Shown: positions 20,199 to 43,261 of the stretch, piece after piece
How the letters are laid out: each line of letters begins with the position of its first letter
Numbering within the stretch: the first letter of the stretch is position 1
DNA from: Treponema sp.
Lineage (GTDB): Bacteria; Spirochaetota; Spirochaetia; Treponematales; Treponemataceae
Assembly: GCF_017430385.1 (NCBI RefSeq)
Contig: NZ_JAFRNB010000128.1
Span: 7,690 to 71,689 of the forward strand
Direction of reading: 5' to 3'
Length of the DNA stretch: 64,000 bases
Position numbers and translations under genes: made by a program
Notes under the pieces: model-generated
Database searches by the model: none
Told to the model about the DNA's origin: nothing
What the model saw: only the letters and a program-made list of their open reading frames with translations

Positions 20199-20747
20199 TT
20201 AGTCCTCAACTGCTACACCCAAGTGTTTTTTCTGGAATTTCTTGAGCATTGCAACACCGTTGCGTTTGCCATTGTATACATAACCGCCATCCCAGTATTC
20301 GAGGGCTGCGAAAAGGGCGTTACCACCGTCCTGATCGTCTGATTTCTTTGTGCGGAATGAAACATAGTTTGCCAATTCCTCGAAATCTGAGTCGTGGAGT
20401 GCCTGCAATCGTTTGCGGTTGAATTCGTTCCATTTTTCCAAATCTTTGAAACCTTCGCCTTCGTCCTGTACGATGAGGTGAGCGTGTGAAGGGCTGAATG
20501 AATACCAAACCTTAACCTTTTTGTTGATGTCGCAGCCGTTACCGTGTTTTACAGCGTTTTTGATAACCTCGGAAATCTGCTGCTCAAGAAGGTTGATTTC
20601 TTTGATTTCAAGTGGTGCTGACTGAACAATAAGAAGTGTGAAATAGCGAATCTGGCGGAAATCTGATGGGAATTCCTTGTAGAGCATGTTCGTTGTGTCG
20701 AACAACGGATCGTTGTCGTCTGAACGCAATTCTTTAATCTGTTCCAT
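20199..20747 (-). CDS. RsbW-like anti-sigma factor / GHKL kinase domain protein
   Basis: N-box SEVIKNAVKHGN, G1 box VQDEGEGF; adjacent to STAS and PP2C genes. Confidence 0.82.
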   Translation of the reverse strand: MEQIKELRSDDNDPLFDTTNMLYKEFPSDFRQIRYFTLLIVQSAPLEIKEINLLEQQISEVIKNAVKHGNGCDINKKVKVWYSFSPSHAHLIVQDEGEGFKDLEKWNEFNRKRLQALHDSDFEELANYVSFRTKKSDDQDGGNALFAALEYWDGGYVYNGKRNGVAMLKKFQKKHLGVAVED

Positions 20748-20765
20748 TACTGTTTACCTCACTTA

Positions 20766-21104
20766 TTATTCGTTTACCATGAGAAGTGCTTCCTCAACGC
20801 TGTTTGCGATAGGGAAGTAGCCCATGAGTTTTGTAAGTTCAATGACCTTCTTTACAGAGCCATGAATGTTTGAGATTGCAAGCTTGAGATTCATCTTTTT
20901 GATTGTTGAACAGATGTAAATCAATGCGCCGATTCCAGACGAGTCGATGTAATCTACCTGCTCAAGGTTGATGATGAAGCTCTTTACATTCTTCTCAAGC
21001 ATTTTCATGACGAGTTCCTTTAGTTTATAGGAGTTGTAAAGATCCATTTCGCCGTTTACATCGATGATATAAACTTCTCCATTCTTTCTAATTTTCAGTT
21101 CCAT
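20766..21104 (-). CDS. Anti-sigma factor antagonist (STAS, RsbV/SpoIIAA-like)
   Basis: GEMDLY, DYIDSSGIGAL phospho-Ser motif; 112 aa. Confidence 0.92.
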   Translation of the reverse strand: MELKIRKNGEVYIIDVNGEMDLYNSYKLKELVMKMLEKNVKSFIINLEQVDYIDSSGIGALIYICSTIKKMNLKLAISNIHGSVKKVIELTKLMGYFPIANSVEEALLMVNE

Positions 21105-21122
21105 AAATTTTAACTCCTTTAG

Positions 21123-22778
21123 TTACTGAATTTTAATCACAAGAAGTGTCTGGTCATCGCGCAGCGTTTCGTTGCCAACGAACTTCTTGATATCTGTTTT
21201 TACCAGGTTGGCAATATCCTTACCTGGCAATTTAGCATTCGCCTTTATGATATTAGTCAAGCTCGCAAGGGAATATTGCTGCCCCTGTGCATTAAGAGCT
21301 TCGACCAAACCATCAGTATAACATATTATAATGTCTCCTTGGCTCGCTGTAAACTCTATATCCTTATAACTTGTTGTTTTTTCGATGCCGATTGGCTCAC
21401 AAGTTGTGGATATTTTTTCTATAGCGTCCTTAGCTACATTATAACGATAAACAGGAACACTTCCACCTGTTGAAAGCTGGAATTTTCGTTTTGTAGGATC
21501 GTAGTTGATGAGCGCGACCGATGCGAAGTGGTCTGCGTTCGGCTCGCTACAGATGCCCCTGTTAGCCCAGCTCAAGATTGTTCCTGCTGTCTGCGTTGTG
21601 TTGACGATAAGGCGGAACATGGCACGAATCATTGCCATTACAAGCAATGAGTTCATTCCCTTTCCTGCGACATCCATCATGATGAATGCTATTCTGTCCT
21701 GCCGTGCCGGGATTACATCGTAGATGTCTGAACAAACGCCGGAAGTGTGCTCCGCGTAAGTTCCGATGTTAAGCCCAGCAAGCGGAGGAAGTTTTTTTGG
21801 AAGAAGCGAAAGCTGAATGTTTGATGCAATGTCCGCTTCTTTTGTAAGTTCCTGTTTTTCAGTGTATTGTTTGAAATTAAGAACTGTTTTTAATGCGGCT
21901 TCGGCAAATCCTGCGAGTGTCTGTGCCCAATCGAATTCCTGATCTCCGAACGGGTCAACGCCAGGGTTGCGCGAAAGTGCAAGAACGCCTACGACAACAT
22001 CTTTGTCAGGCATTCGGAGAGGAAGGAAGATGTAGCTGCCGAGCTTAAGGAAGTCCTCCGGCTCGTTCTCGAAAATGCGATCGTCCATCTTTGGAGCTGG
22101 AATAAGCTCTGCTTTTCCGGCCGTAGCGACTTCACCAAAAATGTTGTCGCGGAGAGGGAACTGCGCATATTTGAAACTTGTCGAGACTCTGAGTGGCTTG
22201 TGCGGCAAGTCATCAGGCAATTTGTATGGCGGCGGGAATTCGCCTGTAAATGATTTTACTGTGATTAAATCCTCGAATTCATCGACCATGAGGATTGCAC
22301 CGCCGTTTGCCTTTGTCGCCTGAACACAAGTTGTGTTGATTGAGTCGAGCAGGGCCTGCATTCCGTCTTTGTTTGAGAAAGAATCTGAGGCGAGGGCAAT
22401 GAAAGATTTGCCTTTTTCAATGAGGTCGAGTTTTTCGACCTGAATTTCTTCAACGACAATCTCTGGTTTCTGCTCTTCTGTTTCGGCCTCGTCCTCAACT
22501 GCCTTTACATACTCCTGTGGTTTTCCAAAGGCGAGCATGATGCAGTAAGGAATGAAAAGCAAAGCCGTGAGAAGGATGAGAAGCGCAAAAATCATCATAC
22601 CTGGGTGAGAGGCGGTGTAAATACATGCGAATATTACTACCGCCAGCGCGAAATATGCAATAAAACTGACCTTTGCTGTTTTTCGAATCTTAATGATTGT
22701 TATGAGGACCGCTATTACTACAGCAATAGCAGCCGTACAGAACAAAGGTACATAAGAAATTGCGTCTGATGTGAACAT
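21123..22778 (-). CDS. SpoIIE/RsbU-family PP2C phosphatase with N-terminal TMs and GAF domain
   Basis: About 3 TM segments, GAF-like middle, ASNIQLSLLP, DVAGKG, YTDGLVEA, DDQTLL; ATG 22778 with GGGAG RBS. Confidence 0.9.
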   Translation of the reverse strand: MFTSDAISYVPLFCTAAIAVVIAVLITIIKIRKTAKVSFIAYFALAVVIFACIYTASHPGMMIFALLILLTALLFIPYCIMLAFGKPQEYVKAVEDEAETEEQKPEIVVEEIQVEKLDLIEKGKSFIALASDSFSNKDGMQALLDSINTTCVQATKANGGAILMVDEFEDLITVKSFTGEFPPPYKLPDDLPHKPLRVSTSFKYAQFPLRDNIFGEVATAGKAELIPAPKMDDRIFENEPEDFLKLGSYIFLPLRMPDKDVVVGVLALSRNPGVDPFGDQEFDWAQTLAGFAEAALKTVLNFKQYTEKQELTKEADIASNIQLSLLPKKLPPLAGLNIGTYAEHTSGVCSDIYDVIPARQDRIAFIMMDVAGKGMNSLLVMAMIRAMFRLIVNTTQTAGTILSWANRGICSEPNADHFASVALINYDPTKRKFQLSTGGSVPVYRYNVAKDAIEKISTTCEPIGIEKTTSYKDIEFTASQGDIIICYTDGLVEALNAQGQQYSLASLTNIIKANAKLPGKDIANLVKTDIKKFVGNETLRDDQTLLVIKIQ

Positions 22779-22880
22779 TTGACTCCCTTTATTGAAACAC
22801 AAGCCGATGTCAGGCAGCCTGTGCTTCCTCTACATATTTTATAATTGTAACATCGGAAGAAATTACCGTCAAGTTTTTAT

Positions 22881-24535: not shown

Positions 24536-25897
24536 TTAAATCCCCGCTTTAGCAAGTAGAGATTCAAGCTTTTCTTTGCCGACAAGTTCGATAGGACGGT
24601 TCTCGGCAAATCTGATTGCCGTGGTTGTGAATTCTGAAGAAGTACATGCGAATGCCTTAGCGCAGTTCTTGGTCTTTGCCAGATCAAGCGTGCGGCGCAC
24701 TTCGGCATCCTCGATAGGGTCGGTGACACGGTAGAAATTGAGCAGGAAGAGCTGTTTGCGCATGTTCATCCAGTCGTCTTTCTGGGCTTCGGTTGCGATA
24801 ATCTGACAACCCCATTTTGTTTCCTGGGCTGTCTGTGCTGAAAGATTGAAGCCGGCCAGAGCTGTTTTTTTGCAGATTTCGACGAATTCAGCGTTTGAGC
24901 TTGTGAGGAATTCCTTGAGACTGTCGTTTGACTGCAAATCTTTGTATTCTGACAACTTGGAAGGAACATCGCGGAAGTTGCGGCTGATTTTTGAGATAAT
25001 CTGCCACTGCTCGATGGCTTTGTCAATCTTGCGGTTCTTTTCGTAGCAGCTTGCAAGGAAGTATCGTGCGTAAAGAGTTTCCTGTGATTTATCGTCTTTT
25101 CCGGCCTTGATTGCCTTTTCGAATTCGAGCTGAGCATTGTCGATTGCGTTTGCGAGCATGTAGCATGAGCCTCGTTCAAGCAAAGCTCTCTGTTTGAATT
25201 CGGGATCGCGGCAGGCTTTTTCGAAAGATTTGACGGCTGCCGGGTATTCCTTGTTTTCCTTTTGGATTTTGCCAAGGTAGTAATATGTAGAGAATGTCTC
25301 CGGGCTGAGTTTGAGCGCGTAATCGATTGCTTTTTTTGCCTCGCCGAACTGTTTTGCACGGAAGAGAATCATTCCCATGCCGGCCCAAGCCTTTACATTC
25401 TTTTTGTTGAATTTGATTGCTTTTTGATAGAAACCGAGCGCACTTTCGGCATTGTTCTGCTGCTCATAAATTTTACCGCACTGGTAGAAGTTTTCTGAAT
25501 TTGTAGGCTCCAGCTTGGTGAGCAGAAGGAATTCTTTGAGGGCATCGTCGAGCTGGTTGAATTTGAGGTAGAGCTGAGAAAGCTGCTTGCGGAATTCGGC
25601 CTCTGGGAGCTGAGCGTCAAAAAGGGCATTCGCCGCTACGGTTTTGAATTCCATGAGCGCGAGTTCATTCTTGTGGTCGGCCAGATATGCCTTGCCCAGA
25701 TAATAATGTGCATGGAAGTCGCGCGGATCTTTTGCGATGAGTGATTTTGCTGCTTTTTGCGCGGCATTGTACTTCTGCTGCTTGATGAGTTTGTTGATAG
25801 CATCGATTTTTTTTGGTGCTACCAATGATTTGATTACGAAAACTCCGAGAAATCCGATGAGAACTAGAAGTATTAAGCTGACTGCAACAACTACCAT
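24536..25897 (-). CDS. Membrane-anchored TPR protein with C-terminal Mrr-like (restriction endonuclease fold) domain
   Basis: Real start probably ATG 25897 (MVVVAVSL, TM segment); many TPRs; C-terminal TSSEFTTTAIRFAENRPIELVGKEKL resembles the Mrr_cat tail. Confidence 0.8.
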   Translation of the reverse strand: MVVVAVSLILLVLIGFLGVFVIKSLVAPKKIDAINKLIKQQKYNAAQKAAKSLIAKDPRDFHAHYYLGKAYLADHKNELALMEFKTVAANALFDAQLPEAEFRKQLSQLYLKFNQLDDALKEFLLLTKLEPTNSENFYQCGKIYEQQNNAESALGFYQKAIKFNKKNVKAWAGMGMILFRAKQFGEAKKAIDYALKLSPETFSTYYYLGKIQKENKEYPAAVKSFEKACRDPEFKQRALLERGSCYMLANAIDNAQLEFEKAIKAGKDDKSQETLYARYFLASCYEKNRKIDKAIEQWQIISKISRNFRDVPSKLSEYKDLQSNDSLKEFLTSSNAEFVEICKKTALAGFNLSAQTAQETKWGCQIIATEAQKDDWMNMRKQLFLLNFYRVTDPIEDAEVRRTLDLAKTKNCAKAFACTSSEFTTTAIRFAENRPIELVGKEKLESLLAKAGI

Positions 25898-26027: not shown

Positions 26028-28508
26028 ATGACTTTAAAAAAGATTTTTATATTAACTTTGATTTCCTCAATTTTGATTCCCGTTTTTTCAGCCGGAAAGA
26101 AAACATCGTCTTCTACAAAAAAAAATAAGGCTCCTGTTCCTGCGGCGGTAAATCCTACGACGACAAAATCCCCGGAGGCAAAGACCGCCGTTGACAAGCT
26201 AAAGAAAACTCCGTCATCAAAACAAAAAAAAGAGCCGGTGATTGTATATAATGAAGATTTTGTAAAGGGCGAGGAACTTTTTGTGCTCAATAAGCCAGAA
26301 GAAGCAATCGTCTATTTTGAAAAATCACTCCAGAGCGAAAATGTTGACCCAAAAGTCTATATCTATCTCGGAGTCTGCTATTATCAGATTGAGCAATATG
26401 ACAAATCTCTTGCGGTATGCGTTCAGGGACTTGCCAAGGAAGATACTGACCACAAAATCCTTGCGTACAATGCGGGTAACTCGTGCTATGCGATGGGAAA
26501 CTATATGCGTGCCGATGCGAGCTATGCGATAGCAATCCGTGAGGACGAGACATATTCTCCGGCGGTGTTGAACCGTGCCAATGCTCAGCTTAAGCTCGAC
26601 CATCTTTCTGATGCGCGTGATAATTACCGCAAATACCTTGATATGGAGCCAGAAACTCCCCAGCGTGAAAAAATCGAAATAATCCTGCGACTTCTTGATG
26701 AAGAAATTTTGCGCCGTGCGAACGAAAAGCCGGAACTTGTGAACGCAGAATTCAACATCGAGAATGAAAAAATGGAAGTTCCTGAGGAGCCGGAGATAGT
26801 CCTTGCTGATGATATTCCGCAGGAAAAGAAGGTTGATGAGAAAATTCCGAGCGAACTCGTACATTCTGTAGCTCCAGAATTGCCGCAGGTTGCAGTCGAG
26901 AAAAAGCCTTTGGAGCGCGTTGAATCTGAAAAAATCGCCGTTAAAAAAGAAACTCCAATCATTCCTGAACTTGTCGGACCGGACGGAGAACCACCGTACA
27001 TTCCTCCTGAGCAACTTAGGCTTGTTCCTGTTCTGCCTGTGATTGCTGATGCTGGCGATAATGCTGGCCGTCTTTCAAAAGATGCCGAAAAACTCAGGCT
27101 TGATGATGACATGAAGCGTTTTGAGGAAGAATACCGCCGTGAACGGGAAGAAGCTCAAAAGGCAGAGAATGCCCGAATTGCCGCCGAAGCCGAGGAAAGC
27201 CGAAGAAAAGCAGCCGAAGCTGAGCGTGAAGCCGAAGAAAAGCGAAGAAAAGCCAGAGAAGAAGAAGAAAAAATTGCGGCACAGAAACGCGCGCTTGAAG
27301 AAGAGCGCATGAATCTTGAAAAAGCAAAAATGAATGCTGAAATCGAGGCTCAGAAAAGAGCTTTGGAAGAGCAGCAGCGTAAAATGGAAGAATCGATGAA
27401 AGCTTTTGAGGAAAATCAGAAGCGTATCGCCGAGGAAAACCGCCGCAAAATGGAAGAGGACGCCCGCCTTGCCGAAGAAAAACGAAAACTTGAGGATGCG
27501 AGAAGGGCTTTTGAGGCAGAACAGCAAAGAGTAATGGAAGAAAACCGCCGTAAAATGGAAGAAGAGGCGCGGATAAAGGCTGAGGCCGAGGCAAAAGCTA
27601 AGGCGGAGGAAGAGGCGCGAAAGGCCATTGAAGCGCAGAAAGCCGCCGAAGAAGCCGCAAAACTCAAGGCTGCGGAAGAAGCAAAAAAGGCCGAAGAAGA
27701 AAAGAAAAGAGCAGAGGAAGAAGCCCGCCAGGCTGAGATTGCATCATGGCCGAAGCCTAGCGCATCTATTTCCGTCAAAGGCGGCTCGAATTTCACTCCT
27801 GACGGCGATGGTCAGAACGATACAGTTGTTTTCTCTCCTAGCATAGATTATCTTGAGGATCCTCCTGGCAGCTGGTCGCTCGATATTCTTGACCCGCAGG
27901 GAAATCCGTTCCGCACGATTAAAGGAAGCGGAAAACTCCCGAAAAACATTGAGTGGGACGGAATGAGCGACAAGGGCGAGGTCGTTCTTTCAAAAAATAC
28001 ATACACCGCGAAACTTACAGTTGTTCCATCTGCCAAAGATCAGGCTCGAATAGGAATGGCTTCCGTAGGTACTAGCGAAAAAGTTAAGACAGGCTTGCTT
28101 TTGCAGGTAATTGTTCCTGGCAAGGAGTGGAAAATGGTCGTAAATTCAATCAATTTCGTTCCCAATGGAGCACTTGGAGCCAATAAACTGACAAAAGAGC
28201 AAAGAGACTGGAACAAGGAGACACTTGACGAGATTGCCGAGGAAATAAAAGCTCACCCTGGCGCAAGCATAGTAATTATTGAAGGGTATGCGAACAATAT
28301 CAGCGGAACAGAAAAAGAGAACCGGGAGGAACTTATTCCGTTGAGCCAGCTTCGTGCAGATGCAATCGTAGATGAACTTGTAAAACGCGGGGTCAGCCGG
28401 GATTTGCTTCAGTCTACCGGTATGGGCGGTGCTAATCCTATGGCATCACAAAGTGACAAGGCAAACTGGTACAAGAATCGCCGTGTTGAATTCAGAATCA
28501 AGAAGTAG
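26028..28508 (+). CDS. Exported TPR / charged-helix / FlgD-Ig-like / OmpA-like domain protein
   Basis: Signal peptide; TPRs; ~210-aa E/K/R/A helix; FTPDGDGQND; OmpA C-terminal motifs IEGYAN, LSQLRADAIVDELVKRGV, NRRVEF. Confidence 0.85.
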   Translation: MTLKKIFILTLISSILIPVFSAGKKTSSSTKKNKAPVPAAVNPTTTKSPEAKTAVDKLKKTPSSKQKKEPVIVYNEDFVKGEELFVLNKPEEAIVYFEKSLQSENVDPKVYIYLGVCYYQIEQYDKSLAVCVQGLAKEDTDHKILAYNAGNSCYAMGNYMRADASYAIAIREDETYSPAVLNRANAQLKLDHLSDARDNYRKYLDMEPETPQREKIEIILRLLDEEILRRANEKPELVNAEFNIENEKMEVPEEPEIVLADDIPQEKKVDEKIPSELVHSVAPELPQVAVEKKPLERVESEKIAVKKETPIIPELVGPDGEPPYIPPEQLRLVPVLPVIADAGDNAGRLSKDAEKLRLDDDMKRFEEEYRREREEAQKAENARIAAEAEESRRKAAEAEREAEEKRRKAREEEEKIAAQKRALEEERMNLEKAKMNAEIEAQKRALEEQQRKMEESMKAFEENQKRIAEENRRKMEEDARLAEEKRKLEDARRAFEAEQQRVMEENRRKMEEEARIKAEAEAKAKAEEEARKAIEAQKAAEEAAKLKAAEEAKKAEEEKKRAEEEARQAEIASWPKPSASISVKGGSNFTPDGDGQNDTVVFSPSIDYLEDPPGSWSLDILDPQGNPFRTIKGSGKLPKNIEWDGMSDKGEVVLSKNTYTAKLTVVPSAKDQARIGMASVGTSEKVKTGLLLQVIVPGKEWKMVVNSINFVPNGALGANKLTKEQRDWNKETLDEIAEEIKAHPGASIVIIEGYANNISGTEKENREELIPLSQLRADAIVDELVKRGVSRDLLQSTGMGGANPMASQSDKANWYKNRRVEFRIKK

Positions 28509-28516: not shown

Positions 28517-30463
28517 ATGAAATCATATTTAAGACGGACTTTTATTGCAGTTTTTCTCTTGATTTTTAGTCATATAGCCCTCTTTTCGTATGACTTGACT
28601 TTCAGGTTTGAGCCTCTTGCACTTGCTCCGTTCATGTCTGCGGGAGAGACCAAATGGGATCCTGTGGGTGCCGGCGGAATGTTGAGCATGGGAATTGATT
28701 TGTTCGGATTGGTGAATGTCGGTACGATGGCAGGATATCTTTATGTTCCGAAGAACAATAATTCCGAGCTTCTGCCTGACGAGGCAAAATTCGTTAGCGT
28801 TATCCCTGTAGGGCTTCAGACCAGCCTGACTTTCTATCCTTTTGCGAGACTGGAGCTTGGCCTTGGCGGGGCTATGGGCTACGGAATCGCGCAGAACGGA
28901 AGCATGTCGCATTTTGCTCCGTGGTACAGGGGATTTGCCGAGGCGGGATTCAGGTTTAATCCGAAATGGACTTTGGGCTTAGGTGGCTCTTATTTTGCGT
29001 ATCAGAATACATCATGGTTCGGGCAGCCGGGCATAGCAGGCATTACGGCCGGAGTCTCGCTCAAACTTCATCTGGAAACAAAGAAAAAATCATTCGGAAG
29101 CGGAACTGTCGTTTGTACCGCTGAAATCCCGGACAGTCTTTTCCCGCTTTTCTATACAATGTATAAGGAAAATCCTTTTGGTACGATTCAGATAAAAAAC
29201 AACGAGTCTGCTGAAATCCGAAATGTGTCGGTAAGTTTCAAGGCAAAAGGCTATACGGCTTCCGAGCTGGAATGTGGTCATATTTCAAATATCAGGAAAG
29301 GAAAAACAAAGGAACTCCAGCTTGTGGCAGATTTCAGTAAGGAAATCTTGCGTTTTACAGAGGCCGGAAAAATCCCTGGCGAAATCATCGTCACTTATGA
29401 GCTTCTTGGTCAAAAAAAGGAATCAGTTTCTTCTATAATAATTCCTGTTTATAACCGAAACCAGATGCGCTGGACTGACCCGCAGGCAATTTCGGCATAT
29501 ATTTCTGCTTCTGCTCCTGAAGTCCTTGAATTCTCAAAGGTTCTGGTCGGACTCGCACGAAGCCATCTGCGTTCAGGCGTTAACCGTAATCTTCAGTTTG
29601 CGATGTATGTCTTTGAGGGAATGAGACTTGCCGGCATACGAAACATTGATGATTTTGAGACACCTTATTATTTATATCATACAGATGATTCTCTGGTAGA
29701 TCACATTCAGTATCCTTATCAGACAATGTTCTACAGGGCAGGTGACAAGGATGAGATGGCAATCCTTTTCATGGCACTTCTTGAATCTGTCGGTATCAAG
29801 GCCGCTTATATTCCTCTTGAAAATGATTTCCTCGTTCTTATCAACACCGGCATTGATGGCGATAAGGCGGACCGATTCTTTGACGGTGAGGACAGAATCC
29901 TTGAGTTTGAGAATCAAATTTGGGTTCCGATTTCGATGAAAATGATTCAGGAGGGATTTATAAACAGCTGGCACAATGGAGCCAGGGATTTGACGAAGCT
30001 TATTATGGACGATGCAGACCTGTCAATTGTCTTCCTTGAAGAAGCATGGCAGATTTATCCTTCAGCCGGATTTACGAGCAACGAGAATGTTTCCGTTTCT
30101 GCTGATGAAAAGCGTCTTGTCGCAGCCTGTGAAGTTGACCTTGCCCGATATGTTTCAACGGAATTTGGTCCGAAAATCAAGGAAGCACAGGACATTCTTA
30201 AAACTGAAGGTGCTACTGCAGAAAATTATAATCAGCTTGGAATCCTTTATGTCCGGGCAGGAATGTACACCGAGGCATCTTCTGTTTATCAGAAATCTGC
30301 CGCATTGGGAAATGTTGCCGCGATGAACAACCTCGGAAACATCGCGTCACTCCAGAAAAACTTCCTGGAAGCAAAAAAATGGTATGAGAAAGCACTGGCT
30401 ACCGATCCGAAGAATGCCAGCGCAAGGAAGAATCTTGAGCGTGTTTTGGGTGAACTTGAATAG
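28517..30463 (+). CDS. Predicted OM beta-barrel + inactive transglutaminase-like domain + TPR protein
   Basis: Signal peptide; ~170 aa of amphipathic Gly/aromatic strands; QYPYQTMFYRAGDKDE (no Cys); C-terminal TPRs; paralogous to the next gene. Confidence 0.75.
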   Translation: MKSYLRRTFIAVFLLIFSHIALFSYDLTFRFEPLALAPFMSAGETKWDPVGAGGMLSMGIDLFGLVNVGTMAGYLYVPKNNNSELLPDEAKFVSVIPVGLQTSLTFYPFARLELGLGGAMGYGIAQNGSMSHFAPWYRGFAEAGFRFNPKWTLGLGGSYFAYQNTSWFGQPGIAGITAGVSLKLHLETKKKSFGSGTVVCTAEIPDSLFPLFYTMYKENPFGTIQIKNNESAEIRNVSVSFKAKGYTASELECGHISNIRKGKTKELQLVADFSKEILRFTEAGKIPGEIIVTYELLGQKKESVSSIIIPVYNRNQMRWTDPQAISAYISASAPEVLEFSKVLVGLARSHLRSGVNRNLQFAMYVFEGMRLAGIRNIDDFETPYYLYHTDDSLVDHIQYPYQTMFYRAGDKDEMAILFMALLESVGIKAAYIPLENDFLVLINTGIDGDKADRFFDGEDRILEFENQIWVPISMKMIQEGFINSWHNGARDLTKLIMDDADLSIVFLEEAWQIYPSAGFTSNENVSVSADEKRLVAACEVDLARYVSTEFGPKIKEAQDILKTEGATAENYNQLGILYVRAGMYTEASSVYQKSAALGNVAAMNNLGNIASLQKNFLEAKKWYEKALATDPKNASARKNLERVLGELE

Positions 30464-33185
30464 AAAAAATCTGTTTTCATTTTCAAAAAAATATGCTGTT
30501 CTCTTGATTGCTTTCCTTTTGGGAAATTGCCTTGCCTTTGCTGACGGTGAGATTCTTTTTAATGTCCACGGATATTTCGGGTCTGTTTTCTCAAGCAATT
30601 ACGCTTCTTTTCCTGTAAAAACCGGCTACGGCGGCGGAACTAAAATCTCTTACAGAACGCCTTTTGCCCTTGAATTTTCTGCCGGCCTTGACTACCTTAT
30701 CCTTCCGCGTGAAACGAAGACCAGCGAAAGCCTTACCCCTGCAAGCTATCTGCGCACTGGAATCGGAGTTGGATTCAACATTCCGTTAGGCGAAAGATTT
30801 GCCCTTGTTCCGGGACTTAATGCGGGTATTTACAACCTCAATGTTTCAGGCGAGACAAAAAAGGCAATGTTCGTCGGCGGTTCAATTTCTTTCGTCTACA
30901 AAATTAACCAGCGTTTTGCAATAGAAATTCCTGCTGTCGCCGAGTTCAACCGCGGAATTTTTGCCGACATCGGATTGGCTCCCGGCCTCACTGTGAACCT
31001 CTCAAAAATGTTCTCCGATAATGCCCTTGTCTCAATGGAAGTAAAGGAAGTTAAGCCTGTCTTCCCGGTTCTTTATTCATGGTATGAGAAAAATTCTTTC
31101 GGCACGGTTTCTGTCACGAACCAAGAGGACACCAGCATAACCGATGTAAGCGTAAGTTTCTTCCAGAGCCAGTACATGGCACAGCCTAAAGAATGTGCAA
31201 GAATAAGCAGGATTGAGCAAGGAGAATCAAAAGATGTTGACCTGATCGCGTTCTTCAACGAGAGTATGCTTGAGCTTATCGAGAAGGTTGACACTCAGGG
31301 CTCAGTGACCGTTTCATATTCCGTGCTTGGTCAAAAGAAAGAAAAGACTTTCCCTGTCACGCTCGGAATTTACGGCCGAAACTCGATGTCTTGGGATGAT
31401 GACCGCCGTGCCGCCGTCTTTGTTTCTTCAAAAGACCCTGCCGCCATGCTTTTTGCGCGCCATGTCATGAGCTGCGTTCGTAACAATCTTCGTTCCGGGG
31501 TTCCTCAGAACATTCAGTACGCTATGGGAATTTTTGAGGCTCTGGATGAATTCGGCATCAACTATGTAATCGACCCTAATTCTTCTTATTCTGACAATGT
31601 TGGTTCTTCTTCAATCGACTTCCTTCAGTATCCTTATCAGACTTTGATGTATCGTGGTGGTGACTGTGATGACCTTTCGATTCTGACTTGCTCGCTTTTT
31701 GAGGCTGTCGGTATTCGCACGGCATTCATCACGATTCCGGGACACATTTTCATTGCCTTTGATTCTGGAATCAAGCAAAAGGATGCCGGAAAATACTTCC
31801 ATTCACTGAATGAATATATCGTTTCGGACGGAGAAGTCTGGGTTCCGCTTGAAATTACGCTTTCTGACGAAGGCTACACCAAGGCTTGGCGTGTCGGTGC
31901 AAGAGAATGGTATTCAGCCGCAAGGACGAACGAGGCGATGCTTTACAAGATGCACGAGTCCTGGCAAATTTACCGTCCTGTCAGCGTTCCGGGGGCTGCC
32001 GTTAAATTTCTTCTTCCTGAGAGAAATGATGTTCTTGCAAGATTTTCTGACAGCGTTGATGAATGGATTGTCCGCGAAATTTCTCCGCAAATCCGAGCTT
32101 ACAACGAAAGCCTTGCAAATGGTGAGGATGCCGGGGTTCGCAATGATTTTGGAATCCTTTATGTCCGCTATGCGCTTTTTGATGAGGCGGAAAGTCAGTT
32201 CAAGATTGCGCGCAAAATGAAAAATGATAACGCAGTCCTGAATACGGCCGGCATGTATTTTGCGAAGGAACAGTACGAGTATGCTTCCTTATTATACAAG
32301 CAGATTATAAAAAATGATGATGAAAACACTCTTGCTTATCTAGGGCTTGCCCGTTGTGCCTACGAACTTGGTGATTACAAGACTTGTGATGACGCTTATG
32401 CCGTAGTCCTTGAAAGGGACATGGATACGGCTGCAAAATATGCTTATCTTGGTTCTTTTGAGACTGTGCAGGGGCGTGCTTTCTCACTTTCGGAAAGGCT
32501 TGAGAATACAATCTGGGTCGGAAGTCAGGACATTAAGAATTCTCTGGAGCCGGACAAGGACATGGACTATTATGTTCGCCACGGAATCGGCCTGAACTCA
32601 CAGTTCATCATTCCTACGGACAATATGCCTGTGGTCGAGAAAAAATCCGAGCCAGAAAAACCTGTCATTGCAAAAGAGCCTGACTGGAATAAGGACAAGA
32701 CCTGGCAGAAAGTCATCGTCATTATTGAGGAAGAAGAGCCTAAGAGAAATACTGCCGAGGAAACTAAGCTCAAGAAAGAAATTGCCGCTGTCCATCAGAA
32801 ATATATGCAGAAAGATGAGCAGCCAGAAGAGAATGTCGAGGTTGCCGTCGCTCCTAAAAAAGAAGAGCCTGACAAAAAAGAGATTCCTGAGATTCCTTTT
32901 GTCACACAGACAAAGGACGAGCTTTTCTATAAGAACAAGGATCCGCTTTTCTATGAGAAGGAGCTTCGCCGTCGTTACTATTATGTTCAGATTGCAAGTT
33001 TCTCAAGCTATGAAAGGGCAGTGGAGCTTTGCAAAAAATATCCGAAATATCCGCTGCAAATTGTTAAGAGCGGAGAATATTTCCGTGTCGTGATCGGTGC
33101 GCTTACAATAGATGAATGTGGGGCTGTCCTTGAGAAATTCAAGGCATTTGGATTCAAGGATGCTTTCATAAGGAGGATTGAATAA
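30450..33185 (+). CDS. Predicted OM beta-barrel + transglutaminase-like cysteine protease + TPR + SPOR protein
   Basis: Start probably GTG 30450 or TTG 30456; signal peptide; barrel-like strands; QYPYQTLMYRGGDCDD...PGHIF...WVPLE; TPRs; C-terminal YYVQIASFSS...FRVVIG...DAFI (SPOR). Confidence 0.8.
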   Translation: MNLNRKNLFSFSKKYAVLLIAFLLGNCLAFADGEILFNVHGYFGSVFSSNYASFPVKTGYGGGTKISYRTPFALEFSAGLDYLILPRETKTSESLTPASYLRTGIGVGFNIPLGERFALVPGLNAGIYNLNVSGETKKAMFVGGSISFVYKINQRFAIEIPAVAEFNRGIFADIGLAPGLTVNLSKMFSDNALVSMEVKEVKPVFPVLYSWYEKNSFGTVSVTNQEDTSITDVSVSFFQSQYMAQPKECARISRIEQGESKDVDLIAFFNESMLELIEKVDTQGSVTVSYSVLGQKKEKTFPVTLGIYGRNSMSWDDDRRAAVFVSSKDPAAMLFARHVMSCVRNNLRSGVPQNIQYAMGIFEALDEFGINYVIDPNSSYSDNVGSSSIDFLQYPYQTLMYRGGDCDDLSILTCSLFEAVGIRTAFITIPGHIFIAFDSGIKQKDAGKYFHSLNEYIVSDGEVWVPLEITLSDEGYTKAWRVGAREWYSAARTNEAMLYKMHESWQIYRPVSVPGAAVKFLLPERNDVLARFSDSVDEWIVREISPQIRAYNESLANGEDAGVRNDFGILYVRYALFDEAESQFKIARKMKNDNAVLNTAGMYFAKEQYEYASLLYKQIIKNDDENTLAYLGLARCAYELGDYKTCDDAYAVVLERDMDTAAKYAYLGSFETVQGRAFSLSERLENTIWVGSQDIKNSLEPDKDMDYYVRHGIGLNSQFIIPTDNMPVVEKKSEPEKPVIAKEPDWNKDKTWQKVIVIIEEEEPKRNTAEETKLKKEIAAVHQKYMQKDEQPEENVEVAVAPKKEEPDKKEIPEIPFVTQTKDELFYKNKDPLFYEKELRRRYYYVQIASFSSYERAVELCKKYPKYPLQIVKSGEYFRVVIGALTIDECGAVLEKFKAFGFKDAFIRRIE

Positions 33186-33320: not shown

Positions 33321-36300
33321 ATGAAGTTCAAGAAAAATATAGTTTTTAATAAAAATTCTCGAAAATTCCGCATGTCGGCGTTTGTTTTTGCCATTACAAT
33401 GCTTCTTTCTGTTGTTTTTGCCGCTTCGTGCTCGTTTATGGAAGATGATGAATTCTTCGGCAAAATTGAAAATGAGGTTGCCGTTGCCAATGCCGACAAG
33501 ATGAGCGTTTACATCCGATATGCCAACACCCGCTTTGGAAAAACTTCCCCGGCCGATGCAGGCTATTATACCGCAAAAAACAATGTAGCGTTTACTGTTT
33601 CGGCTACAACAAACACCGACTACGGTTTCTTCAAATGGGCGGCTTTTTCAACAAAAAACTTTAACCCTTCCGAACAGTATTCTGCCCTCGTTTACAACAG
33701 CGATGAAGAGTATAACCAGCTTTTTGCCCCTCTGGAACTTCCTGAGACTATCGTAAAATTTTCCAGCAAGAACAGCCAGAGCACCGAAGTCACGATTTAC
33801 GCCACAAGGGATGACATCTGGCTTATACCGATTGTCGTAAACAGGCCTGTAATCAGTACGACCTTCCCGGACACAAGCTCCAACCCTGTCCGAAACGCCA
33901 GCCTCCGCGTCCAGTTCTCAAAGCCAATGGACGAGGCTTCATTCAAGGGCAACTACAGCGTAGGTGAGGGTAACCTTACCGATCAATTCGAGCTTAATCT
34001 TCAGGATATTACTGACTTGTTTGAAATCAAGCTCAGTGAAAGTAAAAAACTGGTAACATTTTCTTTTAAAAATGAAGTAATTGACGGCGTAAACCGCTAC
34101 GATACAGGCTTCAAAGCCTCAAGCAACGTCCAGATTTCGTTTACTGAGGACATCACCGATGTTTACGGCTATAAAATGGCTTCCTCGGCTTCGGTAAAAT
34201 GGCGAATCGGTACGACCTATGACCGTGCGGCTCCTATTATTGAAGTCCTTACCGGCGGAACAGGCTCTAACTTCTCTGCCTTTGAAAGCGTTGATACTCC
34301 ACAGGCGCTGGCTGCCACAAATGCTCTTGCTAATTACCCTGATACCGTACTTGCTCAGCGTTCTACTGGAAAAGTCAATTTCTATGTTTATGCTACTGAT
34401 ATTGCCGCCAAGGAAAACTCTGCTAAGCAGGAAAGTGACGTTCAGATGATTGGATTCAGGGCGACAAGCCTTACCGACATGGAAGGAAACTCACTTGACG
34501 GAACTGCCGAAGGAAATTACATCAGCCAGAAGTATGAAACTTATGCTCCTGCCCTCAACTACAGTGAAGTCAATCAGGACTTTACAACGCTCATGCCGGG
34601 CAAGGGAGAGGGATGTCTTTACACTTATGACCTTTCTTCTCTGCCTGACGGCCTTATCAAGGTTGATGTATGGGCAATGGATATGACCGGTAACAACGGC
34701 CTTGAACATTACGATTCTTCTATAGTATATGATGGTAACCACAACGGCTACAGGTCAATCTTCGTTGTCAAGGATTCTAAGGCTCCTGCCATCGAGACAG
34801 AAAAGGATAAAGTTCGCTCTTCTTCTAGCGATGCTCCTTACGGCTGGTACAACGCTTCTTCATTCAACCCGATTAAGATGAACGAAATGTCTCCTATCGT
34901 CGATTTGGGTAACGAAAAGCTCCGCTCACCACACGACAAGATTAAGTGGATGTTCCGTCTCGGTGCAGATACTAACTGGTCTGTCACTACTGACGATGCT
35001 TCATGGAAACTGCTTACGACACCTGCCACACCGTATGAAGTCGGACTTGCCCGCGTTGATTCCGAAGGCCTTGTTTCAATCACAATGCGCCTCATGGATG
35101 ATTTGGGCAATATAGCGGATCCTGTCGCAATCTCTTCTGCATACTATGATGAGACTCCGCCTGTAATTTCTGCCCTCTCTTGGGTCAACTCTGACGGAAC
35201 TTTGGCATTGAACGCTACTAAGGATTCTACTCTTTCTCAGATTCTCAAAATTCCGTTCACCGAAGAAAAGAGCGGCATCAAGCGAATCGAAATCAAAGTC
35301 GAGGATTCAAGCGGAAACAATGTTCCAAATGCACTTGCCGGTGCAACAATCTCTTACTCTACTGATTCTGCTCCTTCTGGTGCTGCCGAAGTTACTTATG
35401 ATACTTCTGATCCTGCTCATACAGGCTCTGTCCTCGTATTCACGGATTCCGTCACGACAGGAAACCTCTATGTAAGCGGCTTGAATATTAGAAACTCTGC
35501 CGATGAAACATTCACGGTCAAGGTAAAACTCTTGGATGCGGCTATAAACTCTGGCGACAAAGAAACTAACATCAAGTGCGACATCACTGACCCTGTAGTA
35601 AAGGATGTTTCTGTCGTTGGATTGAGTCCTCGTGCAACAAAGAACGGAAGTGCAGACGGCGTTACAAAGTGGCTTCCGTACAGTGCTTATGATACCGCTA
35701 CGCAGCAGGCTGTAAAAGCCCGAGTTTCTGTCAATGTAGAGGAAAGCTGCTCAGGCATTTACGAAATCAAGCTTGGTGAGGACGCATACCTCACAGATTC
35801 TTCTTACATAACGATTGGCGATACTGCTCTTGCCGCCGGAACGGACTTCAGCCTTAATGTCGCCGCCAACACAATCCTTATGAGCGACATGTTCAGTCCT
35901 AAACTCAAAGGTGATGACATAACGTTCATCATTGAAAATGTAAAGATTGACAATGACAACAGCACTGTAAAAGTTTCCGTTAAGGATTTCGGCCTTAACG
36001 GTGGTGATAAGTCTCTGCCAAATGTAATGAAGGACAGCACTTCTCCTGCAATCGACAGTATTGTCCTTTCTGACCGTGGCGAGGCTTCCGGAACATTGCC
36101 GAGCGTTGCCGATGCTGACGGAACAAGATACACCAACGACCGCATCGTAGACCTTACAATCAACGGCGCAAAAGACGGAGATGCGGGAAGTGGTCTCCGT
36201 GGAATCGTCCTTGACTCTGGCGCGACATTCACTGATACGACAACAATTACAGTTGAAATTTCAGGCTCTTCTTCTAATTGTACATTCACTAAGACTGATG

Positions 36301-39300
36301 ATAAGACTGTCACATTCGATACGGCTTATGCTTATGATTCTACAGTCAGCTTCGTCATAAAGAACATTTCTCTTGATTCTAATACCGATGGCGTTAAGAC
36401 TGTTAATGCTCACCTCTTTGATATGTGTGGCTGGAAGTCAGAGGTTAAGACCGATTCCATCATCCTTGATACGACACCACCTGGCTGGCTCGACAAGTGG
36501 ATTTATGTTGCTGACAGCGGCAATGTTGCCGGAGAAATTTATCCTGCCACAGGTGCAATCGGTGTTGAAGCTGCAGTCAGTGGTGAACCTTACTTCTACA
36601 CAAAGAATGCAAATGCTTATCTTTCAGTTTCTTACAGCGATGCCAATTTCTACGGCTCGAAGTACAGCACTACAAAGACGGCAGCACTCGAAATCCTTTC
36701 TGATTCAAGTTCTGTTGATCTTACAGGTTCCGCAGGCCTTGAATTCCAGGCTCTCCCGGCTTCAGGCTCTACATCATATTCAATCGTACTCAGGGATAAG
36801 GCCGGTAATGTTTCACCAGTCAAGACTTTCCATGCCGTAAGTGATGTTGCTATTACAAAAGACACAGGCTCACCTGCCGTTTCCCTCACAAACAGAATGG
36901 CTAAACTTGATTCAAGAAGCGATTACAAAGTCTATCTTGAAGGTCCTTCACACAGAAACCGATTCTCAACGAGCGGCACGACAGGAGCTGATGACTACAA
37001 GGTTTACATCAGCGTTAGTCTTGCTGACTATACAGAAAAAACATACACGACAAGTCAGTCAGGCCTTGCAAAATTCGCAATAAACGATTCTTCTACTGCC
37101 GCACCTTCAGAATCTGGCAGTGGAACAGATTTCAACAAGTGGATTCCATATTCGGCAGCCTCTGGAGACGAAATCAAAGTCTGGATTCCTTCTGATGATA
37201 ATCTTCGTGGCCCTTACTATCTGTGGCTCATGGATAATGTAGGCAACACCAATTGTGTCCAAATCCGAACTCCTGCAAATGAAACTGCCGGCAACAACGA
37301 AACATGGCTCGGCAAGGCTTCGGTCAATCAAATCGGCACAATCGATTATGTAAACGGAACTTCAACAGAAAGCACAACCGAAGAACTCGGAAAACTTGTC
37401 ACAAGTACATTCGACGGCTTGAGGGGCAATGTAACTTATTACAACGACGAGGCAAAAATCGGCTTTGCTTATGATGAAGGCACAACTGGAATTGACTTCT
37501 CTGGGGCTGCATCTGCAACAAATTACCCGGTACGAGTTGCCATTGTCAAAAAGACTGCTAAGACAGCACCGTCTAAATCAGACTTGAGCGACACAACGGA
37601 ATGGATTTATCCTGATACTGCAAGCGGCACAGCATATACATTTACAAATAAATCTTATCCGAAGGATTTGAGCGAAACCGAAAAATACGGCGCAAATTAT
37701 GAATATCTCTACTATATTATTGAAGATGCTGTCGGCCATGTGAACACAGGAATCCTAAAGCCTGGAGCTGAGGATTCCCAGTGGAAATACGACAATGATG
37801 CACCGAAAGTGACTCTGCGAACGGAGCCTGATGTTGATTTGACAACTTTGGGTGCTGGAAATCTTTCGGATCTTGTTCCTATGCACTATGGTGTGCAGGC
37901 ATTCTATGACAATTCAAAAGTTTGGGTTCCTGCTACCGCTGGAGATATTTCTGAAACTGTCGAAGAAGGCGATAATACTTATCATAGTATTGAAAAATCC
38001 CTCTACTTTGATTTGAGTATTGCGGAATCAACTAAGATTACAAAATTCTATTACAGCACATCTTCTTCAGCAGAATCTTATGATTCACCAAGCTGGCAGA
38101 GCTCATCGGACGGAAAGGTTGATGTTTGTATTCCTGTAAGCATTCTTTCTTCTGCTACTGACCTTTATCTGCACGTGTGTGATATTGTCGGTAACATCAA
38201 GACTTATCAAGTTTCAGCTTTGAAATGGCAGGCTGATGCTGTGGCTCCAGATTTTGCATCCGGAACAATTACGCCTCCGTATAAACTGAAGGAAGGCTAT
38301 TATTATGCTTTGCCAAACATAGACAACAACACAATTGTCGTGGCACTTTCAGGAAATGCCTATGCCAGTGATTCTGTCAAGGTCACAATACCGCTTACAT
38401 GGTTCAGCGATGACTCTGGTTCTGGTGTTTATGCTTATTCATTTGAAGATTCAGAAGATAATCCTGGAAGTATTCCTATCTCCATTGATATAGATTCGGG
38501 GGATTCTGAGAATACAAATCATAGTCCTTGTATAAAACTTACAAAGGGAATTCATTATGAAAGAGATACAGATAAGAATTTCTGGCTTTATGTTTATGAT
38601 TTTGTAGGAAACTGCAAGAAAGTAAATTTAACAACCAGGGTTGATACATACGCACCGGTTTTCAAACTTGGTTTTGATATTGACGGCACGGGAACAATCT
38701 TAAACCATCCGCAGACGCATGGTGAAGTTACGGTCAATTTGAGCGGTAAAGAAGGTTTTATTTATGATGCTATTGAAAATGTATCTGCTGATAAAACATA
38801 CAATGTAAAAGATAGTGAAGGTAATGAGAAGGAATTTCAGTCTAAAGTGGAAAATCAGGACTCGCCTGGTTACACGGAAGCTAATCCTTACATTATTTAT
38901 GCTTCTCCAAATTCTACTTATAATATTGACGGAAAGCGGTACTTTATAGGTACATTCACTGCAACTGATGAGGATACAGGTGCTGGTGGTGCTACACTGG
39001 GAATTTCAGACATAAAGGTAGACCGAAAACTTGGTGTGGCAGGTAGTACTTGGGAGAATGATTATCTTACAATGTCGAACCTGAAAAATTATGCAACTGA
39101 CACTAGTAGATCTTATGTCACAAAAGTTCCGATTGATTTGGATGATACAGGTCGTTTCTACAGAATAACTGTCAGTGACTATGCTGGTAACACAACTGAG
39201 GTGTACATAAAACTGTTCCTCGATGTTACCGAACCTGCATTTACTAGCAATCCGACTGTCGAAGCAACAACCGGCTCAATCAATACAGACGGCACGAATT

Positions 39301-42300
39301 ATTATTTCAACGAGATGAAGCTTGATTTCACCGGAAAAGACATGATTTCAGATACAAATTCCGGTTTGGCTTCGGGTACGAAGAATTATGAAATCGTGAG
39401 CGGAACAACTTCAATAAAGGACGCAACTGCTGTCACCGATTCTGACAGCGGATTTGAAGTCAGCCTCACAAATGAGCAGGCAGGATTTGCTTCACACACC
39501 AACGAAAGCAATCTTTATGTAAGGCTCTCCGACAAACTCGGAAATTCTAAAGATTATGACTTGTATTTGGGTGGAACAAAGATTGAAAAACCGTGGGTTC
39601 GTGATACGGAAGCACCGACTTGGCCTGATTGGAATTTATCTACTACAACGGCTATTATAGGTGTATTGAGCGGCTCTAATGCATCACGTTTTACTTTGGA
39701 TGCGAATATTCTCCTTTATACAAGCTCTTATAAAAACAGGGATATTGAATTAAAACCGACTGCAGCTTCGGATACAGGAAGCGGCATTATGGGCTATGTG
39801 CTCTCAACAAGTTCAACACTTACAGGTCCATACAGTTCTTCAAACTTCACTGGAACGACTGCAACGCTTTCGGCAGCTTCAACTGCATTTGTGAAAAAAG
39901 ACGGAAAATTTACTTTCAAAGTTTCTAATTTCATTGATGCTGCTTCTGGAGCTGGAAGTCTTTGGCTTTATGCCGTTGATTATGCAGGAAACATGACGAA
40001 GCAGGAACTCCAGATTCTTGAAGATGCAGGATACCCTGTAGTATCTTCAATTGTCGCATCAACTTCAGGGGACATTTATTGTGATTCTAGCCAGAATTAT
40101 TACAATACTGATGCAAAAATTAAAGTGACTGCTAGTGTTACAGCTACCCGCGGTTCTGTATATATTTGGAAATATATGTTCAAAAACACCGATGTTTTTG
40201 AAGACAGTGATTTAACTTCAACTTCATGTGTCAATTATCCTTCAGATGAAATTCTTCCGCTTCCTTCTGACTGGACGGCCGGAGACACATTGTATCTTCA
40301 TCTTGTTTCAAGCCGCTACGGAGTTACAGCAACGCCTGTCAAACTTACGGGAGAAGGAACACTTAATTCTACTGTTGCCGCATGGACTAAGGATACGACT
40401 CCGCCTGTTATTTCTCTTTCTCTTGCTTCTGGTGGCGGACTTGTAATTAAGTCTGGCGAATCAGAGCTGGTTTCTGCAGGTGCCTTGTTTGAAGATTCTT
40501 CTACATATATAACAAACGCAGTTGGTTATACTGCAGATGTTGCCCTTACTGATTCTGGAGCTGGTGTAGCTTCGTCAAATGTTGACGGTGGAACGGATAA
40601 CACAGCTTCTTCTTATACAGTAACAGCAAATTCTGCCGGAGACATTGTAATCACCGCAAAAGACCATGTTGGAAACGAATCCTCATTCACTTTGAAGACA
40701 GAACTTGACATCACGGCACCATCTGTTTCAAATCTTGAGATTTCAAATGCTGCTGCTGACGATGCGGGTGCTGTTCATTCCGTGAACGCTGATTCTAGCG
40801 GTGTAATCTATTTCAATCCTTCGCATATCAATGTTTCTGTCACAACTTCTGATACTCAGACAACGGTTGCGGGATATCTTGTCGATTCTTCTAATAGGGC
40901 AAGTGCAACTAGCGGAGGTTGGACTTCAACACTTTCAAGCACGAACTTTGCTTCTGCGGACGGAACTGCGCTCTATCTGCATGTAAAGGATACCCTTAAT
41001 AATGTGGAGGATTATCCATTTGCAGGAAACGCAAAATACACGCCGATGGGGGCAGCTTCTGCTTCGACAGCAGTTGCTTCGGCAACATGGAAGGCTTTGA
41101 CTGAAAATACAGCAAGCGTAACTTCTGTTACACCTTCTGTGGAAAACGGAAGCGGTATCTATTATGACTCAACGGCTGGAAAAATCTGGTATAATCCTAA
41201 TTTCAATGGAAGCACGCTTTCTTTGAGCCTCACTCCAGCTGCTTCTGGCTCTCTTGTAAAAGGCTTCCGAATCGGAGCTGCAGGAAGTTCTTGTGATTCT
41301 GGTCTTACTCCAAGTCTTGCGGATGGCGATATTGCAATCTATTCTGTCGATTATGCCGGAAATATTTCAACTTCGGCATTCAATCTTAACCTCATCGATG
41401 ATTCTACGGCTCCTTCAATTGTGGCGACATTGGCATCTGGAGAAATCACTTCTGATAAAACTGCTTTAATTGCCGATGGTGCAGCACTTGCTTCTGGAAC
41501 TGAATATTTCACTAATTCAGATTATTACACTTCAAGCATTGCAATCACAGAAGAAGGTTCTGGAGTTGATTCTGTGACAGATATTTCTGGAACTGCCGGA
41601 AGCTATTCTGTTTCAATTGATGCTGCGGGTGAAAAGACAGTCACGGCAAAAGACAAGGTTGGAAACGAAGGCACATTCACTTTCAAGACAAGCCTTGTTT
41701 CTGAGGTTCCGGCTGTAAGTGCCGTGACTTATTCTTCGGCAACTTCAATGAATTTAAAAGACTCTGCTTCTCTGTATTTCAGTTCTGCATATATTTCAGC
41801 GGCAACTATTACAACTCCGGTTCTGCCAATCAAATATGAGCTTTCAATTGATTCAACAGGCGTTGTGCCGTCAAAGGATGTCGGTACTGACCTTTCACTT
41901 GATTCATTCAGCGGAAAATCTTCAGGTGGAGTCTATATTTGGAGCGGAGATGTTCTTGGAAATACAAAGGCTGTTCTTCTTTCTTCAATAACTGCTACTT
42001 ATACTCCATTGAGCGGAACTTCTACGACAATTACTGGACCATATAATTTTGTAAAGGATTCTGACAAACCTGCGGCTCCAAATTCTGTTTCAGATAATCA
42101 GGGTGATAATACTGATTTTGATTCGTCAAAAAAGATTCTTTATTACAATACATCCGTGGTTGCTTTGGAAATAACGCCAACCCTTGCGACTGCCGACGAT
42201 TCTCTTATGGGATTTATGTCAGCTGCTGATTCAACAGATTATTTTGATAAACTTATCCTCAGTGGTGATTCACTTGTTCCAGGGGATAAGTCATTCTATT

Positions 42301-43232: not shown

Positions 43233-43261
43233 TTGACAACTTGGTATTAGTGCGTTATGAT
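43233..43261 (+). promoter_or_regulatory. sigma70 promoter
   Basis: TTGACA (43233)-N17-TATGAT (43256); AGGAGG RBS at 43297. Confidence 0.8.

Follow-up and report, generated by a model that had tools for sequence, protein, structure and literature searches.

Two described bacterial signalling arrangements resemble a five-gene locus of Treponema sp., which lies in a 64,000-nucleotide stretch of contig NZ_JAFRNB010000128.1 (assembly GCF_017430385.1), here called the window. The first is the Lap/Dvh system, which consists of LapG or DvhG, LapA or DvhA, and LapD or DvhD. The accessible part of PMC13090378 describes LapG substrates as a retention domain followed by a helix and the site [T/A/P]AAG. 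The second is the cyclase pathway of Sinorhizobium meliloti (NsrA, CyaK/CyaD1/CyaD2 and Clr). According to the available sections of PMC7529298 and PMC13001267, the outer-membrane barrel protein NsrA is needed there for signalling to the inner-membrane CHASE2 cyclases, and an excerpt of PMC5498481 places a FecR-domain gene near the S. meliloti cyclase. FecR-type proteins encoded beside a CHASE2 sensor of unknown input also appear in the available portions of PMC5192318 and PMC9239204, which concern the Burkholderia BiofilmReg operon and a Campylobacterota cyclase cluster. The five Treponema genes are all on the forward strand of the window. They encode a transglutaminase-like protein lacking its catalytic residues (the dead copy), its catalytically intact homologue (the active copy), a giant predicted lipoprotein, a small secreted protein resembling a FecR fragment and a retention module (here FEC), and a CHASE2 cyclase. 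They are regarded as one functional unit.

Like LapG, the active copy is a predicted periplasmic transglutaminase-like cysteine enzyme (LapG structure 4fgo, Z 8.4, 142 residues aligned at 17% identity) with acidic residues beside its Cys. A giant extracytoplasmic protein is encoded next door, FEC combines a weak retention_LapA match with a small-residue motif, and an inner-membrane second-messenger protein is present in both cases. However, the triad here is Cys-His-Glu, whereas the accessible part of PMC13090378 gives Cys-His-Asp for LapG. The enzyme is fused to barrel, Ig, TPR and SPOR domains and has a dead paralogue. The retention-like domain stands alone as a 137-aa protein and is not the N-terminus of an adhesin, the giant combines a lipoprotein signal with a C-terminal membrane helix, and the messenger enzyme is a CHASE2 cyclase instead of a c-di-GMP receptor. 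With the NsrA pathway, the locus has in common a barrel protein and a CHASE2 cyclase that are kept together, contiguously in six genomes and also in second loci. Unlike here, the sections of the NsrA papers available mention neither a cysteine enzyme or pseudoenzyme nor a dedicated giant lipoprotein, and the NsrA barrel has ~600 residues, compared with ~150 in Treponema. The FecR–CHASE2 clusters, as far as the portions cited above describe them, share the FecR-type gene adjoining a CHASE2 sensor, but the FecR part here is truncated at V-R-G and has an acidic Trp tail in common with the enzyme, and the enzyme pair and cargo are added. By analogy, the locus may join two known logics without being a member of either: Lap/Dvh for the enzyme fold and substrate build, and NsrA–Cya/FecR–CHASE2 for the barrel, the FecR-type partner and the CHASE2 output.

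The dead copy (28517–30463, +; 648 aa) comprises a signal peptide, an 8-stranded barrel assigned by homology, an Ig-like domain, a transglutaminase-like domain and two to three TPRs, and has no R-A...W tail (see below). The active copy (30384–33185, +) forms an open reading frame (ORF) of 933 aa counted from its first ATG; its true start is likely the GTG at 30450 or the TTG at 30504 instead. It consists of a barrel, an Ig-like domain, a transglutaminase-like domain, TPRs, the R-A...W motif, a low-confidence linker and a SPOR domain. A first-pass annotation of this DNA had proposed that the adjacent genes are homologous over about 290 aa; they align over 562 aa (28% identity, E 7e-77). The motifs and codons it listed are present and aligned. 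In the active copy, GGDCDD, PGHIF and WVPLE contain Cys428 (TGT, codon 31665), His454 (CAC, codon 31743) and Glu490 (codon 31851), and the corresponding dead-copy motifs AGDKDE, ENDFL and WVPIS carry Lys411 (AAG, codon 29747), Asp437 (codon 29825) and Ser473 (codon 29933). These two are the only family members found in the genome.

The catalytic residues are lost throughout the orthologues of the first gene, a point that the annotation had proposed to check. Among the best 120 of 435 dead-copy homologues, the His position is occupied by Asp in 119 and Glu in one and never by His, the Glu position by Ser, Ala or Thr in all 120, and Cys is retained in 13. A survey of 115 loci of about 20 kb contains 35 loci with both copies, in which the dead copy keeps the Cys in four and the His and Glu in none, and the dead gene always comes first, on the same strand as the active gene. 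The ratio of nonsynonymous to synonymous substitution rates (dN/dS) of dead copies is 0.09–0.18 in 10 of 11 close pairs, the remaining pair being saturated. In a FastTree phylogeny of 147 distinct cores, from which rows shorter than 280 aa or with unread residues were excluded, all 35 dead copies form one clade (support 100). This clade is sister to 37 paired active copies (support of the joint clade 99), and the two together are nested among 75 unpaired active forms and cover four family codes of the order. Because the catalytic residues are lost group-wide, dN/dS is low, the copies form one clade and the first position is fixed, the dead copy is, on sequence grounds, a real pseudoenzyme held by purifying selection, and the enzyme/pseudoenzyme pair proposed in the annotation is conserved. 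Recent decay of the first gene is ruled out by the group-wide residue loss, the single clade and the low dN/dS. An alternative Lys-Asp chemistry is rejected because the dead copies are unconstrained at the Cys position, where V, Y, K, A, C, S and other residues occur. The dead copies of four loci (L071, L072, L073 and L078) read G-D-C-D-D but lack the His and Glu; they are nested among Lys, Val and Tyr forms. A third dead copy, barrel-less and 374 aa long with a signal peptide and TPRs, lies between the dead and active genes of another locus (L074:9875-10999).

The pair stems from one old gene duplication, and treponemes have kept the copies side by side since. Its named homologues are Treponema proteins and contigs; as sequencing runs that contain the stretch are registered as bovine gut, the DNA most likely comes from a rumen treponeme. 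Dead and active copies show correlated pairwise identities (Spearman 0.83, from comparisons that are not independent). The enzyme family is much larger, comprising 1,878 clusters at the 50% identity level (E up to 1e-30), and is present in 36 of the 301 Spirochaetota genomes sampled; it has no Pfam or NCBIfam model of its own. After the duplication, the two copies lost different parts. The TPR residues Asn572, Asn605 and Asn608 are invariant in all 49 dead copies, and the ancestral C-terminal tail, still present in the two earliest-branching dead copies, is gone from all others. Many paired active copies are without TPRs: the short active forms lost both TPRs and tail, and their dead partners retain the TPRs. 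A shared complex would produce such reciprocal domain loss.

The model of the active core (predicted local distance difference test, pLDDT, 94.2) consists of the Ig-like and transglutaminase-like domains. Its structural neighbours include 3kd4 (Z 11.0), PNGase (Z 9.1), LapG and TglA (Z 8.2). In the predicted model, Cys428 starts a helix, His454 starts a strand and Glu490 ends the next core strand, so that the order and elements of the triad are as expected for a transglutaminase-like fold. The three residues are invariant in 113 full-length active cores. The fold named in the annotation was borne out for Transglut_core, which matches 30 of 49 family cores at E 0.05 or better, although the copy here falls below the curated cut-off. 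Its second candidate, Peptidase_C93 (PF06035), matches none of the 49. LapG/Peptidase_C93 membership is rejected on this result and on the third triad residue, which is Glu in 113 of 113 active cores; the suggested LapG kinship, taken as membership, also fails because the giant is a lipoprotein without a retention module. A search of solved structures by sequence with the core profile gave nothing under E 0.1, and the full-length profile gave TPRs only. The genome itself (89.5% complete) has no Peptidase_C93 match, with a control positive in 1 of 14, and none to PF16448, the LapD-type c-di-GMP receptor, for which the controls gave no match either.

The N-terminal barrels claimed for both genes stand for the active copy by its predicted structure and for the dead copy by homology. 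Residues 55–206 of the active copy (30546–31001, +) are predicted to form an OmpA/NspA-like 8-stranded outer-membrane barrel, the AlphaFold model (mean pLDDT 79.6) matching NspA/OmpA with Z 19.3 and a root-mean-square deviation of 1.9 over 145 aligned residues. The TPRs of both copies and the peptidoglycan-binding SPOR domain of the active copy (residues 864–929; 32973–33170, +), which passes the Pfam cut-off, were confirmed. Active copies bear long Pro/Thr-rich linkers with membrane or peptidoglycan anchors, and in orthologues the SPOR domain is swapped for a transmembrane helix behind a long linker or for a weak LysM. Such swapping would fit a periplasmic catalytic domain tied to both sides.

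The giant (33321–43226, +; 3301 aa) is a predicted lipoprotein with the lipobox FAAS-Cys37 (33429), a C-terminal transmembrane helix from 43140 and a basic tail; the complete giants seen in Treponema-type loci all end in such a hydrophobic helix and basic tail. It has 17 D-x-x-G-N motifs, as in Ig-like repeats, and its relatives match Big_5 and Big_13. No NCBIfam match and no retention module were found in it. It lacks the combination of an N-terminal retention module and a [T/A/P]AAG site, the sole retention_LapA match being FEC, and judged by these features it is not a LapA-type adhesin. An acidic amphipathic helix follows the lipobox Cys and ends in A-x-A. This post-Cys helix recurs in the adjacent lipoproteins of other loci, where its median moment is 0.47–0.51 versus 0.31–0.34. 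With a tether profile from distant loci, built without close relatives of the test set, the scores of the giant's orthologue group are shifted up, 7 of 18 reaching at least 5 bits compared with 0 of 350.

The linkage of the enzymes to large lipoproteins elsewhere, which the annotation had looked to, was found in the locus survey, where lipoproteins were called by a pattern of our own. None of the three outcomes named in the annotation as refuting its view was observed. An adjacent co-directional lipoprotein is present in 16 of 37 paired loci (11 of these ending at the locus edge), in 23 of 36 unpaired 8-strand forms, in 4 of 23 other forms and in none of 19 long forms, against a background of 46 in 573 genes. 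For 14 of the 19 long forms a family could be assigned to the part that replaces the barrel, and it consists of propellers or TPRs. Of eight forms with a PorV-like barrel, seven are preceded by a protein with a FlgD- or type IX secretion-like C-terminal domain. The barrel type therefore appears, as far as gene neighbourhoods indicate, to track the cargo type. The distant members recall type IX secretion, as they carry a PorV/PorQ barrel above the cut-off and follow genes for type IX-like or FlgD-Ig C-terminal domains; the treponeme form differs in its 8-stranded barrel and lipoprotein cargo and in the enzyme fused behind the barrel.

FEC (43310–43723, +), whose gene was absent from the first-pass annotation, is the part of the locus that is built like a Lap substrate. 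It is a secreted beta-domain protein of 137 aa, counted from an ATG with AGGAGG, and ends in T-A-S-S-R-A...W-D-E (Arg codon 43682). Its retention_LapA match is weak (17.8 bits against a cut-off of 50), it has no Pfam match, and it is linked to the Atlas FecR cluster only at 0.81. FEC proteins stop where full FecR proteins read R-G-T and end instead in T-x-x-x-G-V-R-G or T-A-S-S-R-A with an acidic Trp stretch. By its sequence, FEC does not have the full FecR family architecture of an R-G-T site and a C-terminal half. In its motif, Gly11 alone is invariant, and Arg and Trp are conserved at 90% or more.

In 29 of 115 loci, across all four classes, an FEC gene is no more than two genes away from the enzyme, including 6 of the 19 long forms, which have no lipoprotein neighbour. 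In ~20 distant loci, FEC stands beside the enzyme in divergent, convergent or co-directional orientation with no cyclase homologue near. At L047, FEC and the cyclase are inserted between the dead and active genes, and at L037 FEC lies between or before the two copies. Within the genus, all 7 enzyme-positive genomes have FEC-type genes, and of the 18 enzyme-negative ones 1 clearly does; one further partial match is ambiguous, and some weak matches were not inspected. The single enzyme-negative genome with FEC is probably a contig break, as it breaks inside an ORF that matches the tail of an active copy at 58% identity over 238 aa. FEC would accordingly belong to the enzyme's module and not to a separate unit, and is present even where no giant is.

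FEC and the enzymes also resemble each other at their ends. Unpaired enzymes terminate in R-A/S-x(5-12)-W-D/E, including two active enzymes that face each other convergently at L093 and L094. In the active copy here, the motif is internal, R698-A...W711 (32475–32516, +), and lies after the TPRs as the positional homologue of the C-terminal tail in single-copy relatives. A tail profile was built from 57 unpaired-enzyme tails, with no FEC and no locus of known pairing. It ranks the C-terminus of FEC 2nd of 4936 ORF ends in the genome (E 0.084), and over whole ORFs it places the internal motif of the active copy 2nd and FEC 3rd. The R-A...W motif may thus be a peptide ligand of the enzyme or its TPRs, recognised in cis on the enzyme itself and in trans when carried by FEC.

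The last gene encodes an inner-membrane CHASE2 adenylate/guanylate cyclase (43821–46580, +; 919 aa), and the association of the pair with such a cyclase, already noted in the annotation, recurs elsewhere. The order dead copy, active copy, giant, FEC and cyclase is contiguous here and in 5 of 5 further genomes checked whole (G335–G339); in G338, the tail of the active gene is a separate ORF within this order. Three of these five genomes hold a second pair that is directly followed by FEC and cyclase, and four more genomes (G003, G009, G016 and G022) show the order in pieces across contig ends. Across Spirochaetota, the single-copy ancestors appear to keep FEC and a cargo that matches the barrel type. 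All five genes are partly covered by contigs from RNA runs of bovine gut libraries. The dead–active junction is crossed by one contig (29702-30974), another runs from FEC into the cyclase (43332-44611), and the contigs begin at 43332 in two runs of one study. They are not counted as evidence because they show no strand, level or single transcript and the libraries possibly contained DNA. A strong stem-loop with a T run lies at 43745-43775, between FEC and the cyclase.

We favour, at somewhat less than an even chance, the pair as the receiver, on the inner face of the outer membrane, of a relay that leads from the giant via FEC to the CHASE2 cyclase. Such a relay from the cell surface to cyclic AMP is likelier than a simple adhesin-release switch. 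In the OmpA topology, an 8-stranded barrel leaves its C-terminus in the periplasm. The catalytic domains would therefore face the periplasm, as is also suggested by the interchangeable periplasmic or inner-membrane anchors at the end of the active copy. Since barrel type tracks cargo type, the barrel may dock or present the neighbouring surface protein. The ancestral single protein would have bound its own R-A...W tail. After the duplication, catalysis would have stayed with the active copy and an Asn-lined TPR groove with the dead copy, which may hold the R-A...W motif of FEC for cleavage or modification at the active site. The cyclase would then be switched by processed or released FEC, in line with the pairing of FecR-type proteins and CHASE2 sensors elsewhere. 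A fuller version, rather unlikely as a whole, makes this a new class of surface signalling. A cargo-specific barrel would carry a thiol enzyme in the periplasm whose site is kept closed by its own R-A...W tail until engagement of the giant opens it. In treponemes, this enzyme would be an obligate live/dead heterodimer, with the substrate held in the TPR groove of the dead copy. It would cut the same motif on FEC, and the product would be the CHASE2 input.

Several observations weigh against the relay. The link between barrel and cargo amounts to only 3 independent contrasts (sign test p 0.5), although never in the opposite direction, and the giant's own tether ranks 88th of 283 lipoprotein candidates with the distant-loci profile. 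The tail similarity is short and not significant alone (E 0.084); the top rank with the tail profile goes to an ORF that is likely spurious, and the scores of long FEC forms are close to zero. A homologue of the cyclase adjoins the module in 6 of 115 loci, and CHASE2 is rarely adjacent outside Treponematales. Co-occurrence at the genome level is uninformative because CHASE2 is present in 244 of the 301 genomes. Half of the enzyme-negative genomes of the genus (9 of 18) encode a CHASE2 paralogue next to a full-length FecR. The best sigma-70-like promoter match of the region (43233–43261, +; 11/12) lies directly 5' of the FEC gene, but it is only a hint because the total matches are at chance level.

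The strongest alternative, doubtful but deserving some credence, is the view taken in the annotation, a Lap-like release or maturation step, in which the pair cuts the giant, most plausibly after the post-Cys helix at A-x-A or before the C-terminal helix, thereby freeing or positioning it, while the cyclase exerts control from upstream. It is consistent with LapG being among the structural neighbours and with the C-terminal helix and basic tail of complete giants, an anchor that may need removal. Moreover, the post-Cys helix of the adjacent lipoproteins often ends in A-x-A, recalling the targeting helix and small-residue site of LapG substrates in the accessible part of PMC13090378. However, A-x-A is not conserved in distant tethers, the Peptidase_C93 match and the retention module are missing, and a giant at the surface would have its tether across the membrane from the predicted active site. 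Furthermore, all 19 long forms keep Cys-His-Glu without an adjacent lipoprotein, and six of them keep FEC.

It is unlikely that the pair is a structural anchor or export partner for the giant, with catalysis trimming only its own tail and FEC and the cyclase forming a separate neighbouring unit. The anchored linkers of active copies and the match of barrel to cargo speak for it, and FEC and the cyclase can be read as a separate unit because of the promoter-like site and the FecR–CHASE2 pairs that exist without the enzyme. Against this reading stand the ~20 distant loci in which FEC accompanies the enzyme without a cyclase homologue, the insertions at L047 and L037, the tail motif common to FEC and enzyme, and the triad invariant in 113 active cores. 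Least probable is a transamidase role of the active copy, which would cross-link either the giant or FEC to peptidoglycan or to a further envelope protein, while the dead copy serves as adaptor for the substrate. In its favour, the fold neighbours include pseudomurein endo-isopeptidases as well as true transglutaminases, and the SPOR and LysM-like anchors place the enzyme at peptidoglycan. Against it, the FEC motif showed no conserved Gln or Lys that could act as an acceptor, the bacterial structural neighbours are mostly annotated as proteases, and hydrolysis and transfer are not separable by fold alone.

The nearest named model for the Ig and catalytic core is the N-terminal domain of the anti-phage protein ProA (NCBIfam NF058533), matched at positions 14-290 of 1903; the active copy reaches E 6e-7, and one relative reaches 5e-14. 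The match of 27 bits is far below the cut-off of 1500 and covers only the N-terminal seventh of the model, and the proteins here are secreted. A defence function as in ProA (Prometheus) is rejected, as PADLOC gave no match and that to NF058533 is partial.

Directly upstream of the pair, 26028-28508 encodes an 826-aa protein with a TPR, a long charged linker, a weak CHU_C/FlgD-Ig domain and an OmpA domain. It was found only here and at L071 and L073, and it is counted as a neighbour and not as a member of the unit. On the reverse strand, 50387-64000 holds an enzyme-free cluster of similar logic, headed by an adenylate/guanylate cyclase that runs off the window. The cluster includes a 920-aa membrane protein with a FecR domain, a 443-aa secreted protein whose C-terminus is like a small barrel (it ends in W-Q-F and has no family match), and three lipoproteins of 717, 1101 (BspA leucine-rich repeats) and 1019 aa. 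At L088 and L042, the enzyme pair is flanked by divergent genes of similar size. A third cyclase of the window (604-3654, −) has a Reg_prop/Y_Y_Y periplasmic propeller and adjoins a GH94 phosphorylase. Also on the reverse strand are a partner-switching set (20199-22802), consisting of a membrane GAF-SpoIIE phosphatase followed by small STAS-like and anti-sigma kinase-like genes, the latter two assigned by eye, and a TPR protein whose C-terminal domain passes the Pfam cut-off as an Mrr-type restriction endonuclease (24536-25894).

The pair and the cluster are real, conserved and apparently undescribed, while we infer their mechanism. No description of the family, pair or operon was found in the literature searched, from which subscription papers were largely and supplements entirely missing; PMC8195603, in the part available, uses the relevant terms in other contexts. 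New here are the single-origin pseudoenzyme with reciprocal domain loss, FEC in the enzyme's module, the common tail motif and the matching of barrel and cargo within one phylum. The pair provides a clean bacterial example of an enzyme and pseudoenzyme fixed after one duplication, in a large family that lacks its own Pfam or NCBIfam model. Little is understood of the way in which spirochetes display and monitor their large surface lipoproteins. The input of the CHASE2 sensor domain is described as unknown in the available portion of PMC5192318. The locus offers a candidate protein input for CHASE2 that can be tested with five genes of a culturable genus, and the surface-signalling reading, if true, would supply this long-missing input.

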